Source: a virus
Lineage: Duplodnaviria; Caudoviricetes
Virus record (IMG/VR): IMGVR_UViG_3300044991_001466
Length of the DNA stretch: 64,000 nt
Direction: 5' to 3' (one strand)
Made by a program: the position numbers and the translations under genes. This document shows positions 17,046-44,158 of the stretch, piece after piece (position 1 is the stretch's first letter; every line of letters starts with the position of its first letter). The notes below the pieces were generated by a model. It searched no databases, had not been told where the DNA came from, and saw only the letters and a list, made by a program, of their open reading frames with translations.

Positions 17046-17074
17046 AAAAAAAGGTCCTTAAAAAGGACCTTTTG
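17046..17074 (-). terminator. Intrinsic terminator of tmRNA (bidirectional)
   Basis: aaggtcct/aggacctt inverted repeat flanked by A and T tracts. Confidence 0.75.
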
Positions 17075-17468
17075 TGGAGATGACGGGACTCGAACCCGTG
17101 TCTTTCCGGTTCAACAATAAATGACTACACGTTTATTCAATTAGTTCTTAATTGACAAATAGAAGGTTAATATCAGGAAACCTACAATACTGTTCCTAAC
17201 CGGATTTTCAAGAGCCGTCAAGTTTGCTCCAACACTCTGGGGTTATGTTCCACCGAAGGGACTTCTGTTCCTAGGTTATATGTCCATCGACCCGATTGTA
17301 GTTTCGCCTTAGGCTACTGCTACGTTAGAAGTTGCAAGTAAACCTGCAATTTCCATGTTTGTGTAAACGTTTCCGTTTGAAATTTTCCACCGTAGATTTA
17401 AGTCATAGATGAAGTCTGACTACGTGCCATTTATCCCTGATACCTGAAATCAATTCCATGGCATCCCC
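17075..17468 (-). ncRNA. ssrA: tmRNA
   Basis: 5' GGGGATG pairs with 3' CATCTCC-A (G3:U70 alanine determinant); T-arm CGGG-TTCGAGT-CCCG; internal tag ORF. Confidence 0.93.
17309..17374 (-). other. tmRNA tag reading frame GNVYTNMEIAGLLATSNVAVA*
   Basis: Open 21-codon frame ending in VAVA-TAA after tttcaaac; resume codon inferred. Confidence 0.7.
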
Positions 17469-19892: not shown

Positions 19893-20815
19893 GGTTTTTC
19901 TTTAGGCCGAACGGTTTTAAAACGTTCCGATTCCACCACTTTGTTTTACTAAACAAAGAAAATAAAACACTGAGAATACATGTCTTAATGAGAATCTTTT
20001 AAACGGATTATTGTTTCCCGTTTGTTTCCACTACCTTTTGAGTAGTAACCCTCAGCGGCGGTCAATTAGATTAACCAATCCTAAAGTCATCAGATACTCT
20101 TTTAATACTCATTACTCTTCGAGATTGCCATCCCAATTAAACCTTATGAGTTTAGAGAACTTTTTTAAAAATCATATTGGGATTGAGTCCCTTTATGGCC
20201 GTGAACCCCTCACGACTAAGTAGCCACCTGTCTCCAATGACTGACGAACACTTTTTCTTTTATTTTTTTAGTTTTCACCATTGAAAGTAAAAGTTTGGTT
20301 TGCAGATTAGGAAAGTAGCGGTTCGTCGACCAGCCAAGCCACCTTTTGAGCGACTCGATACTAAACTACTCTCTAAGACATCCCTGCCTTCATATTTTTG
20401 GTTTCCTTCAGAATTAAACCCTTGGTAGAGTTTAATTAAGGATGATAACAGCACCACCTGTTTTCCACCATACCTTTCGGTTTTAAAGATACCATTATAT
20501 TGAACAACACAATTATAAGGTTGGAGACCTTATTTCTTGTAATAGTTCTACAAGTTATTCTTATTGTTCTTCCGAACTCAGTCAAACGACCTGCATCGCT
20601 TGACCACCAAACCACTTTCCCTACAGTGTTACCCTCAGTACTTAAGGTTCGATGATACCTTGCTTGCCTACTCGAGTTCTATTTCTAAAACCGCAATCTC
20701 ATTCAACCAAATGAAATTACTTTATCCCACTTTCATGGTTTATTTTGTTGACCATAGGCGGCCAATATTTTTAATTCAAAGAACTTTTTCTTTCGATAAA
20801 ACCACCTTTGTGATT
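19865..20815 (-). ncRNA. Large (~950 nt) structured non-coding RNA, GOLLD-like candidate
   Basis: No credible ORF, GC-richer than flanks, many hairpins, two identical UCAAAAG loops, TATATTTG promoter at 20823-20830, terminator at 3' end; family assignment not verified. Confidence 0.7.
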
Positions 20816-26845: not shown

Positions 26846-27523
26846 TTATAGTGTGTTATTCCATTCATTTCTTTTACTATGAATAGTTTCGTGGTTAATT
26901 TTGATGTCATCAATTTCAATAACATTTGGTCTAATTACATTTATATGTAAAAATTCAATCATTTCAACATTTAAATTCAAATCATGAACATGTTTACCTA
27001 AAAAATGATGAATATCACTATGTATTGTTGGTACTGTGTCAATTAATTTCTTCATCATGTCATATGACCCTAATAAAAAAATATCACTTAAAAAAAATCT
27101 ATCATTATTGTATTTTAAAATACTTGTTGAATAAAGAATGTTAGGTTTAATCAAATTTGGTAACATTTCAGATGGGACACTTAATTCAAAATAATCGTCA
27201 AATCTAAGTAATAAAATATAATCGTAATTTTTATTTAAAAGCGATAAACAATTTTTCCAATGAAAAATCATTTTTTCAGAATTACTTAACCCAATGTAAT
27301 TTATTTCATCTAAAATATCTACGGTTGCATTTGGATAATATTTTAATATCATATTTTCATTGACATTAAATTCACGTCTATATCCAAGGTTTTCATTCAC
27401 TTGTTTTGATTTGTTCCACGTCGAAAAATAAAAATCACAATCAAAGTTATTTAATACTTCCCAAGATTTAACCGCTATGTCAAATTCTCTATATTGTCCA
27501 TAAACTAAAACCGCTATTTTCAT
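26846..27523 (-). CDS. Putative glycosyltransferase/capsule-type protein (paralog B)
   Basis: Start MKIAVLVYGQYREF at 27523; tandem paralog of 26115..26843. Confidence 0.55.
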   Translation of the reverse strand: MKIAVLVYGQYREFDIAVKSWEVLNNFDCDFYFSTWNKSKQVNENLGYRREFNVNENMILKYYPNATVDILDEINYIGLSNSEKMIFHWKNCLSLLNKNYDYILLLRFDDYFELSVPSEMLPNLIKPNILYSTSILKYNNDRFFLSDIFLLGSYDMMKKLIDTVPTIHSDIHHFLGKHVHDLNLNVEMIEFLHINVIRPNVIEIDDIKINHETIHSKRNEWNNTL

Positions 27524-27537
27524 AATAACATATATTG

Positions 27538-27685
27538 CTGTAGTGGATGGATTCGAACCACCAAGATGAGATTCAGTAAGTAACACTATGCCGGCCGGCT
27601 GGTGGTCTACCCCATATTACTTACCTATTTCTTTGTCACCACCCCCGAGACAGGAGGGCACGTTTGCCAATTTCGTCACACTACA
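27538..27685 (-). tRNA. tRNA-Asp(GTC)-like RNA with a 79-nt extra arm (148 nt)
   Basis: Acceptor TGTAGTG/CACTACA plus G73; D-loop AATTGGCAAA; anticodon stem CCCTC/GGGGG with loop CTGTCTC; T arm GGTGG-TTCGAAT-CCATC. Confidence 0.7.
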
Positions 27686-27870
27686 AAATAACACCCTTTT
27701 ATCAGCCTAAGCCTCACATAACCTTAGTGTGGAACCACCGGTAGATGTCATGAATGAAGTTATCACGGAGAATGTAGATTTTCACTAACTCGATTTAGCG
27801 GTCTCTATGATAACAATGATGGATGAAAAACTTCTGCCTTTCTTGTGGACTTCCATCGGAGTCCCATAAC

Positions 27871-29626: not shown

Positions 29627-29700
29627 CGGACTAGACGAGACTCGAACTCGCGACCTTCGGCGTGACAAGCCGACATTCTAACCAACTGAACTACCAATCC
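29627..29700 (-). tRNA. tRNA-Asp(GTC), canonical
   Basis: TCGGC-TTGTCAC-GCCGA; G73. Confidence 0.94.
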
Positions 29701-43134: not shown

Positions 43135-44158
43135 TTTTAAATGGCTTTGAATAATTTGGATATATAATTTTCCAAATATTTTTTTTATGTTCTTTTCCGT
43201 CTAACATGTTAAATAAAATGTTAGAGTGTCTATATTCTTTTGCTCTAATCGCAAACTCTTTTCTATCTAAATTTCGTGATTTTAAATTCTCATAAATCTC
43301 AATATAGTCCTTATTAATATTATCAAATCTAATAGTAAAATCCCTAATAGTTTCTTTAACCCAACCGTTAAATTCGTCTGGAACTCTTTCAAGTAATTCA
43401 TCGAACGGTTTATTGTCTTTCAAATATTCCCATATATCACGATTAGATATGTTAGTTAAAATTTTGTGAAGTCTAACATATTCTTCTCCTTTGATTTTCA
43501 TACGAAAACCATTCTTAAATTTAATTACATATCCCTCTCTGTCTTTACTAATTTCTTCTTTAAGTAAATCATATCCTTCTCCCCAAGTCTTATATGTCAT
43601 TACAACTTCAAATCCCGAATCCTGCGTCCAAAACAAACTACTATCAGGTATTTCTTCACCTGTTTCTGTATGAAAACCACCAATAACAACTAATTTTTCT
43701 TCACCTTTATAATCAACAACAATTCTATTTTCAGGATAAATAATTTCAAACAAATATGTATTGTCTTTTCTCCATGCACTGATGTCGTGTCTATCAAGAA
43801 TTTCTTTACCCTTAATTGCCTGTGGTGATGTGAATGATCCGCGTGTTGCCATTATCCACTCATTTTCATAATTAAAAAGAATACCTAATGAACCATCCAT
43901 CTTTTCATATACGACATAATCTTCATTTGGAATATCTTCTGGTTTATGTTCTTCGTAGTTGAAAAATTTCTTAAATGGTCGAGCAACAATATCACCTTTT
44001 GAATTTGTAACCAATCCACGACATTGCAAAGTAATCTCATCCCATAATCTTTCGTACTGAACTTTTGGACTATAATTCCAAATAGTTAAATCAAGGGTTG
44101 GATGGGTTTGTTTATGTAACAAACCATCTTTGTGGTATCTTTCTAATGTTTCTAACAT
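43121..44158 (-). CDS. T4 Rnl1-like RNA ligase
   Basis: CRGLV, KKFFNY, EKMDGSL (motif I), FEII, EGYVI, KIKG..Y. Confidence 0.9.
   Translation of the reverse strand: MLETLERYHKDGLLHKQTHPTLDLTIWNYSPKVQYERLWDEITLQCRGLVTNSKGDIVARPFKKFFNYEEHKPEDIPNEDYVVYEKMDGSLGILFNYENEWIMATRGSFTSPQAIKGKEILDRHDISAWRKDNTYLFEIIYPENRIVVDYKGEEKLVVIGGFHTETGEEIPDSSLFWTQDSGFEVVMTYKTWGEGYDLLKEEISKDREGYVIKFKNGFRMKIKGEEYVRLHKILTNISNRDIWEYLKDNKPFDELLERVPDEFNGWVKETIRDFTIRFDNINKDYIEIYENLKSRNLDRKEFAIRAKEYRHSNILFNMLDGKEHKKNIWKIIYPNYSKPFKNDEN

Follow-up and report, generated by a model that had tools for sequence, protein, structure and literature searches.

A conserved RNA gene of Bacteroidota and their phages, with the predicted shape of an aspartate tRNA and a 76-nucleotide folded variable arm

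Why would a phage that carries an ordinary tRNA-Asp also carry a second, much longer RNA that looks like a tRNA-Asp? The question arises from a 64,000-nucleotide stretch of phage DNA (the window, from IMG/VR record IMGVR_UViG_3300044991_001466), in which an original prediction, made from the sequence alone, described a 148-nt tRNA-Asp(GUC)-like RNA with four intact arms, G73, C38, and a D loop of the class II type. That description holds, and the gene lies on the minus strand, running from 27685 to 27538 (148 nt up to G73, by our hand parse). On comparative evidence, the gene is real and conserved, and its product is predicted to have the shape of an aspartate tRNA to which a folded arm of 76 bases has been added. 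Its parts and its two most relevant neighbors are:

29627-29700, minus strand: canonical tRNA-Asp(GUC) with G1-C72 and A37, the ordinary decoder of the same phage (ARAGORN, Rfam)
27538-27685, minus strand: the whole tRNA-like RNA gene, with U1 at 27685, the discriminator G73 at 27538, and C74 at 27537 (hand parse; covariance model R1, 141.3 bits, E 3.6e-37; family alignments)
27679-27685, minus strand: 5' strand of the acceptor stem, UGUAGUG, which pairs with 27539-27545 (both-side changes in 7 of 7 pairs, 100% of cells paired)
27660-27676, minus strand: D arm with a 3-bp stem, ACG/CGU, and the loop AAUUGGCAA, which has G18 and G19 and is tRNA-Leu-like (class II type); 2 of the 3 stem pairs covary
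27642-27658, minus strand: anticodon-like arm, CCCUC-CUGUCUC-GGGGG, with GUC at 27649-27651, U37 at 27648, and C38 at 27647 (the stem covaries among relatives; identity tallies)
27565-27640, minus strand: 76-nt variable arm with a basal helix (GGUG/CAUC), a short helix (AGA/UCU), a conserved internal loop (AAUAG / UGAA), a long helix, and a branched tip (helices 4-6 covary)
27615-27625, minus strand: 5' strand of the long helix, GGUAAGUAAUA, which pairs with 27575-27585 (both-side changes in 6 of 8 modelled pairs)
27601-27613, minus strand: tip hairpin GGGG-UAGA-CC-A-CC, the arm's most conserved motif (GGGU[A/U]GACCAC; invariant alignment columns)
27590-27599, minus strand: GCCGGCCGGC, a perfect palindrome at the tip that could form a small hairpin or act as a self-complementary (dimerization) element; typical of phage members
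27575-27585, minus strand: 3' strand of the long helix, UGUUACUUACU (family alignment)
27546-27562, minus strand: canonical T arm, GGUGG-UUCGAAU-CCAUC (hand parse, alignments)
27539-27545, minus strand: 3' strand of the acceptor stem, CACUACA, 7 bp with UGUAGUG (family alignment)
26846-27523, minus strand: downstream ORF, whose ATG is 15 nt past G73

In the hand parse, U8 comes after the 5' strand of the acceptor stem and ahead of the D stem, and the variable arm is preceded by U44 and followed by UU. The arm had been described as a 79-nt insert at 27563-27641: it is indeed structured, and its length is better given as 76 nt (27565-27640) plus U44 and UU. From its base, the arm consists of a 4-bp helix, a 3-bp helix, the internal loop, an 11-bp helix (GGUAAGUAAU/GUUACUUACU), and a tip that forks into the conserved hairpin and the palindrome. 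Both the long hairpin and the near-apex palindrome were part of the original prediction, and both are present. The acceptor/T branch is 7/5, and both the 7-bp acceptor stem and the 5-bp T stem covary. The alignments show the predicted fold to be that of a complete tRNA, L-shaped and with a class II core of the Leu type, in which the variable arm has grown into a 76-nt conserved domain.

Neither ARAGORN nor Rfam calls the RNA gene, in scans of the window that do report a GOLLD RNA and a tmRNA besides four tRNAs. If the arm is deleted in silico, or cut to a 5-bp hairpin, then ARAGORN calls tRNA-Asp(gtc), so it is only because of the arm that standard finders miss the gene. The folding energy of the single sequence is unremarkable (z = -0.82). 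Thermodynamics alone is thus no proof of the structure, but the comparative evidence is strong. We also noticed that the spacer about 60 nt upstream of the gene (27700-27745, minus strand) contains GGUGGUUCCACAC, which resembles a degenerate T arm and has no match to the family model.

How widespread is this RNA? We searched with two patterns. The first, the anticodon arm joined to the T arm, matched 81 IMG/VR contigs. The second, the arm-tip motif plus the T arm only, matched at least 119 contigs from phages and the genomes of at least 120 species. Among the matches listed, the carrier genomes are nearly all Bacteroidota (Saprospiraceae, Chitinophagaceae, and Cytophagales), and the carrier isolates include Chitinophaga, Niastella, Runella, Arcicella, Aquirufa, and Flammeovirga. 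Judged by sequence, then, the RNA is the phage copy of a widespread and uncatalogued family of Bacteroidota (Cytophagales, Chitinophagales, and Saprospirales) and their phages. We found no published description of the family in the literature that we searched and no entry in Rfam 15; DNAVirus_1850, a candidate RNA in PMC10690425, might be the same family. Rfam 15 gave no family for the RNA in the window, either at the gathering thresholds or at E <= 10, and none for six bacterial loci at E <= 0.1. A blastn search of the region against 50,697 GenBank phages gave no match, and neither did an exact 27-mer from the T arm and acceptor stem. The downstream ORF, used as an anchor, gave three relatives, with the RNA upstream of none of them.

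We built the covariance model R1 and the pairing statistics on 105 non-redundant phage and bacterial homologues. Across these 105 sequences, 97.9% of cells have standard pairing, versus 79% in shuffles and 47-58% with the partners slid, and 0 of 500 shuffles reached the observed values. Both-side (compensatory) changes are seen in 28 of the 35 modelled pairs, and every helix covaries. Covariation among homologues had been proposed as a check on the original prediction, and it argues against random decay of the arm. The window gene itself matches the model at 141 bits (E 3.6e-37). Could the gene nevertheless be a decaying tRNA pseudogene that was hit by a palindromic insertion, or a chance likeness? 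The unremarkable folding z-score would fit, but the hundreds of homologues, the compensatory changes in every helix, the 141-bit match, and the conserved loops refute this idea, and we give it next to no chance.

In a sample of 151 Bacteroidota genomes, model R1 matches the RNA in 15. Bacterial genomes have 1-5 copies: of the isolates, four have 1-2 copies each (two copies each in Niastella and one Chitinophaga), and one has five in tandem. The tandem copies are in Flammeovirga pacifica (locus L289, G005:C1:4115688-4116630) and are spaced by about 197 nt. Some relatives have an extra hairpin within the D loop. Some bacterial members are short (109-123 nt), with the tip of the arm missing and its base retained. 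Two tandem short members of about 110 nt, without the arm tip (locus L285, G139:C1:3852069-3852399), have the loop CUUUCUC, with a UUC (Glu-type) in place of GUC. This is the sole departure from GUC that we observed, and as these two copies do not fit strict recognition by aspartyl-tRNA synthetase (AspRS), they are a counterpoint to the non-decoding role that we propose below. At two phage loci (L062 and L112), the arm and the T arm are kept while the 5' half (the acceptor, D, and anticodon arms) is swapped for unrelated sequence; these copies are apparently broken or recombined.

The original prediction suggested that the RNA might be a spliced or processed precursor, that is, a pre-tRNA-Asp with an intron-like insert that is removed before the halves are rejoined. 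The insert is a discrete hairpin domain, and the phage does have an RNA ligase of the T4 type, as predicted (Rnl1, PF09511, 70 bits, at about 43478-44026 on the minus strand). Nevertheless, we find this explanation barely credible. The sequence and pairing of the arm are conserved and covary across hundreds of phages and bacteria, the short natural members retain the base of the arm, and the insert is in the variable loop rather than at 37/38. The product of splicing would still have U37 and U1-A72, and the isolates carry the gene in one or two copies or, in one case, in five tandem copies. A tRNA intron, whether group I or spliced by proteins, was rejected: the arm is conserved, it is at the variable-loop site rather than at 37/38 or a bulge-helix-bulge site, and its 76 nt compare with more than 200 nt for a group I core.

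Which features of tRNA-Asp does the family keep? We tallied unique members that were fetched by the distal-arm motif and not by the anticodon (213 for the loop and 263 for the acceptor end, among the matches listed). Among these listed members, G34, U35, and C36 are present in 213 of 213, C38 in 211 of 213, G73 in 263 of 263, G2-C71 in 260 of 263, and U1-A72 in 259 of 263. The predicted non-purine at position 37 is U37 in the window, and the listed members have a pyrimidine there without exception (207 U and 6 C, of 213). U33 is kept in the window RNA and in 167 (78%) of the 213 listed members; the others have C (41), A (4), or G (1). As a control, we took 686 ordinary tRNAs from these loci; 99.1% of them have U33, and 99.4% have a purine at 37. 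The anticodon stem of the family covaries freely.

Five strong determinants of aspartate identity (G73, G34, U35, C36, and C38) are conserved across life, with G2-C71 as a minor one (PMC9976931), and the family has all six. In bacterial tRNA-Asp, G1-C72 is strictly conserved (PMC9976931); the family has U1-A72 instead, on a class II core rather than a class I body. As for the features of an elongator, the family has the cloverleaf, the 7-bp acceptor stem, G18 and G19, a 5-bp anticodon stem with a 7-nt loop, and a T arm with a UUCRA loop. Its variable region exceeds both the 4-5 nt of a short loop and the limit of about 21 nt for an arm, and the family lacks the combination of U33 with a purine at 37. 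Because the marks for AspRS are kept and U33, purine-37, and G1-C72 are altered, the RNA seems to retain what AspRS reads and not what the ribosome needs. So host AspRS probably recognizes the RNA and charges it with aspartate. Given that position 37 is always a pyrimidine, that U33 is dispensable, and that U1-A72 takes the place of G1-C72, we infer that the RNA is not a normal decoder. The tallies and the covariation together indicate that the tRNA body (the acceptor end and the GUC loop) and the arm are both under selection.

The main rival to this reading is that the RNA is an odd but genuine tRNA-Asp isoacceptor: it would be charged by AspRS, delivered by EF-Tu, and read GAY codons, and the arm would add regulation, localization, or protection, for example against nucleases that target tRNAs. 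The full tRNA scaffold, the invariant GUC, G73, and the canonical T arm are what one would expect of an isoacceptor, and ARAGORN does name the RNA as tRNA-Asp once its arm is shortened. tmRNA offers a precedent for bulky RNA at this position, since its large body is attached on the side of the variable arm. Decoding is not barred by a long arm alone: engineered tRNAs can stay active in translation with a hairpin aptamer in the variable arm (PMC7590224). On the other hand, the V-Spinach tRNAs, with inserts about as large as this arm, had only marginal activity (PMC7590224). A pyrimidine at 37 (213 of 213 members, among the matches listed) and a base other than U at 33 (22%) are each found in less than 1% of the 686 ordinary tRNAs, and U1-A72 replaces a pair that is strictly conserved in bacterial tRNA-Asp. 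Furthermore, a normal tRNA-Asp is always present as well: the one that was predicted at 29627-29700 is there, on the minus strand, and the RNA is accompanied by one at 22 further phage loci and in each of the five isolates tested, which bears out the suggestion that the RNA is redundant for decoding. We consider the isoacceptor a serious contender but an unlikely one.

A missense or regulatory tRNA that resembles the allo-tRNAs, charged with serine by SerRS via G73 and the long arm, seems very improbable to us. A long variable arm does count among the serine determinants, as do G73, G2-C71, and R4-Y69; GUC is one of the anticodons that predominate in allo-tRNAs (PMC5389517); and one lineage has changed its loop to UUC. 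But the acceptor/T branch is split 7/5 rather than 8/4 or 9/3, and C11-G24 and C72 are not retained. A single bulge in the V stem is enough to block SerRS (PMC7590224), and this arm is broken by a bulge and an internal loop after 4 bp. The anticodons of allo-tRNAs are also highly diverse, whereas GUC is invariant here (213 of 213 members, among the matches listed).

What do the bacterial loci tell us? Among the 120 bacterial loci listed, 67 have a divergent AsnC-like gene 100-350 nt upstream of the RNA. This neighbor is found at 12 of 14 of the listed loci in Cytophagales, 21 of 27 in Chitinophagales, and 0 of 23 in Saprospirales, and the Saprospirales loci have no conserved gene neighbor. The best NCBIfam match of the regulator is AsnC, at 159 bits, which is under the 227-bit equivalog cut-off. 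We defined an orthologue tier for the regulator (at least 49% identity) in the 151-genome Bacteroidota sample. Seventeen of the 151 genomes have an orthologue: the 15 carriers according to model R1, one with an adjacent 72-bit copy of the RNA, and one without the RNA. In other words, the orthologue is in 16 of 16 carriers versus 1 of 135 non-carriers. In five carriers, the RNA and the regulator are on different contigs. So the RNA and the regulator are co-retained near-perfectly, even when they are unlinked. We found no AsnC-type regulator in 1.47 Mb of phage loci. At 22 of the 120 bacterial loci listed, there is a Methyltransf_4 gene (PF02390, TrmB-type) downstream of the RNA (for example L243:2063-2800), with the order asnC-like <- RNA -> trmB. 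A locus from Arcicella also contains a DUF805 RNA (L168:7259-7325, minus strand; RF03081, 69.7 bits), which is unrelated to this family.

The AsnC-type regulator brings asparagine to mind. Bacterial GatCAB requires a U1-A72 pair (PMC4206432, PMC9976931), and the RNA shares U1-A72 and G73 with the GatCAB substrates tRNA-Asn and tRNA-Gln, besides having an AsnC-like regulator as its neighbor; unlike tRNA-Asn, its anticodon is GUC and not GUU. One could imagine a dedicated role in asparagine metabolism, with the RNA as a cofactor that does not decode. It would be loaded with aspartate by AspRS via GUC, C38, and G73, and GatCAB would accept the product via U1-A72. The arm would hold AspRS and GatCAB together, as scaffold tRNAs do in the transamidosome of Thermus, or would bar the Asn-charged product from EF-Tu and the ribosome. 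The regulator would turn the gene on when asparagine is low, and phages would carry an unregulated, self-pairing version that forces this state during infection. All five carrier isolates encode GatB, AsnRS, and GlnRS. In the sample, GatB is in 126 of 151 Bacteroidota (15 of 15 carriers and 111 of 136 non-carriers), which is not discriminating, as GatB is near-universal outside one subgroup. Full-length asnB is present in 3 of the 5 carrier isolates and absent from 2. None of the 15 carriers in the sample has asnA, which is too rare to be informative (4 of 151 genomes overall), and this phage record has no asparagine synthase. GatCAB in such genomes has been explained by ordinary tRNA-Asn and a non-discriminating AspRS (PMC4206432). 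Given this explanation and our survey of genes, the RNA is not needed for GatCAB or for the supply of asparagine, and we regard the cofactor idea, which the invariant U1-A72 and the close tie to the AsnC-like regulator keep alive, as a long shot.

In phages, the RNA keeps company with tRNAs. The window RNA is 1.2 kb downstream of a tRNA cluster. Among the matches listed, tRNA or tmRNA genes are present at 102 of 127 distinct phage loci, in every case on the same strand as the RNA; at 33 of the listed loci, the 5' end of the RNA comes no more than 35 nt after the end of a tRNA, usually tRNA-Ser. The ATG of the downstream ORF is just 15 nt after G73, so the RNA sits in the leader of that gene block. 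We found no Bacteroidota-type promoter (TAnnTTTG) within 515 nt upstream. Together, the missing promoter and the short gap to the next gene suggest that the RNA is likely made by co-transcription followed by processing of the tRNA type. Other RNA genes are found nearby. The phage's tmRNA (17072-17468, minus strand, with the tag ATSNVAVA*) and a GOLLD RNA (19967-20373, minus strand, 298.8 bits) are 7-10 kb from the RNA gene and on its strand. tmRNA genes accompany the RNA at 25 of the 127 phage loci listed. As for proteins, a gene of 150 amino acids with a PF04308 "RNase H-like" domain (YkuK/DUF458) is within 4 kb of the RNA at 27 of 131 phage loci, among the matches listed (for example L059:4946-5407). 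It is mostly directly downstream, and at 9 of the listed loci it is 50 nt away or less. We rejected PF04308 as a universal partner, as this phage record lacks it and so do 2 of the 4 bacterial isolates.

This context bears on another suggestion, that the RNA is a decoy for anticodon nucleases or for aminoacyl-tRNA synthetases. In a more general form, it would be an uncharged mimic of a tRNA that acts as a sponge or decoy for AspRS, for a tRNA-modifying enzyme, or for an anticodon nuclease that attacks tRNA-Asp. Its loop keeps what proteins read (Y33-G34-U35-C36 and C38) but not the features needed on the ribosome, its phage copies lie among tRNA genes, and this phage encodes a ligase for tRNA repair (Rnl1). 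Yet the acceptor end (G73, C74, U1-A72, and G2-C71) is as conserved as the loop, which is expected for charging and not for binding of the anticodon alone, and U33, which Tgt requires for the insertion of queuine, is not conserved. It would also be odd for a counter-defense decoy to be the hosts' own gene. Acting as a decoy is a possible mode of action, but a device for counter-defense that is specific to phages is unlikely, because the RNA is encoded on Bacteroidota chromosomes together with a dedicated regulator. Overall, we doubt that the RNA is an uncharged mimic. The remaining suggestion, a functional RNA on a tRNA scaffold, is supported in general terms by the selection on both the tRNA body and the arm.

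How do the phage copies differ from the bacterial ones? In a tree of the family, the window RNA falls in a phage-only clade, to which 39 of the 50 phage rows belong. At least three small phage groups are nested among bacterial sequences, and the well-supported branches force at least two changes of label between phage and bacterium. This nesting of phage groups within bacterial ones implies repeated exchange between hosts and phages. The palindrome is a second difference. Among the matches listed, 96.6% of 116 phage members have a palindrome of at least 6 nt just after GACCAC, as compared to 26.5% of shuffles, and 82.8% have one of at least 8 nt (7.2% of shuffles). There are about 29 different palindromes in phages. 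In bacterial members, palindromes of at least 6 nt are at the level of chance (22%). A plain hairpin does not need a loop that is self-complementary, so selection for self-complementarity suggests pairing between two molecules, and the palindromic tip probably lets two phage RNAs pair. Folding of full-length dimers with RNAcofold did not tell the two kinds apart, as palindrome-free bacterial controls gained similar energy through domain swapping.

The explanation that we favor, and to which we give an even chance, is that the RNA is a tRNA-like molecule that is processed like a tRNA, is probably aspartylated, and does not decode, with its arm serving as a module for docking or dimerization. 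The RNA would be excised by the enzymes of tRNA processing (RNase P, RNase Z, and the CCA-adding enzyme). Host AspRS would then recognize it, and probably aspartylate it, via G34, U35, C36, C38, and G73, plus G2-C71. The charged RNA would stay out of normal decoding, and the arm would be a handle for a putative partner; in phages, the palindromic tip probably pairs two RNA molecules. In cells, a dedicated amino-acid-sensing regulator of the AsnC type may control the RNA gene or work with the RNA, and the phage copy, which comes without the regulator, would provide the RNA whatever the amino acid signal of the host. If this is correct, then a large and abundant group of environmental bacteria, together with their big phages, employs a tRNA that has a 76-nt domain built in, for a purpose beyond standard decoding, and a small RNA is linked to an AsnC-type amino acid regulator. 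Because standard annotation misses these genes, the tRNA arrays of Bacteroidota phages are under-read. Several carriers are in culture (Runella limosa DSM 17973, Arcicella gelida, Niastella, Chitinophaga, and Flammeovirga pacifica), so the family is directly testable.

How does the family compare to known RNAs? Ordinary class II tRNAs are the next-best matches to the family model, at 40-60 bits. The resemblance is strongest to tRNA-Leu (RF00005): the RNA has the 7/5 branch, the 3-bp D stem, a D loop (...AAUUGG.AGAC...) that is near-identical to that of tRNA-Leu, an arm at the variable position, and a canonical T loop. It differs from class II tRNAs in that its arm is branched and 76 nt long, as opposed to about 21 nt at most, in having G73 where tRNA-Leu has A73, and in its Asp-type GUC loop with a pyrimidine at 37. 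With bacterial tRNA-Asp, it shares the conserved G34, U35, C36, C38, G73, and G2-C71, but it has U1-A72, U37, a G10 that is not conserved, the class II core, and the giant arm.

Phage T4 makes a stable RNA, species 1 (rnaC), from its tRNA cluster. Like our RNA, rnaC is about 140 nt long, and its canonical T arm (CCGGG-UUCGAAU-CCCGG) comes with a pseudo-acceptor stem, but it does not have a D arm or an anticodon arm in tRNA order. We rejected rnaC and rnaD as relatives after folding them and searching T4 with model R1, which matched only ordinary tRNA-Thr and tRNA-Ser. Modules that resemble tRNAs outside of normal decoding are also known from tmRNA, from the bacterial Y RNA YrlA (PMC4201824), and from the tRNA-Other of Bacillus cereus. 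Unlike tmRNA, the RNA has no reading frame for a tag, and the phage has a real tmRNA elsewhere. Unlike YrlA, it has no Ro-binding stem, its ends close a true acceptor stem, and its anticodon arm is intact; Rfam gave no match at E <= 10.

Finally, the allo-tRNAs (PMC5389517) and the engineered aptamer-tagged tRNAs (PMC7590224) resemble our family in being non-canonical, with long variable arms, and in occurring in bacteria and phages; GUC is common in allo-tRNAs. The family differs from allo-tRNAs in its 7/5 branch (rather than 8/4 or 9/3), its invariant anticodon, and an arm that is 3-4 times longer. The engineered tRNAs demonstrate that the tip of a V arm can act as a handle for a protein (PMC7590224). 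If the reading that we favor is right, then the family is a natural counterpart of these synthetic aptamer-tagged tRNAs, and a new class of tRNA-derived functional RNAs beside tmRNA, YrlA, tRNA-Other, and the allo-tRNAs.
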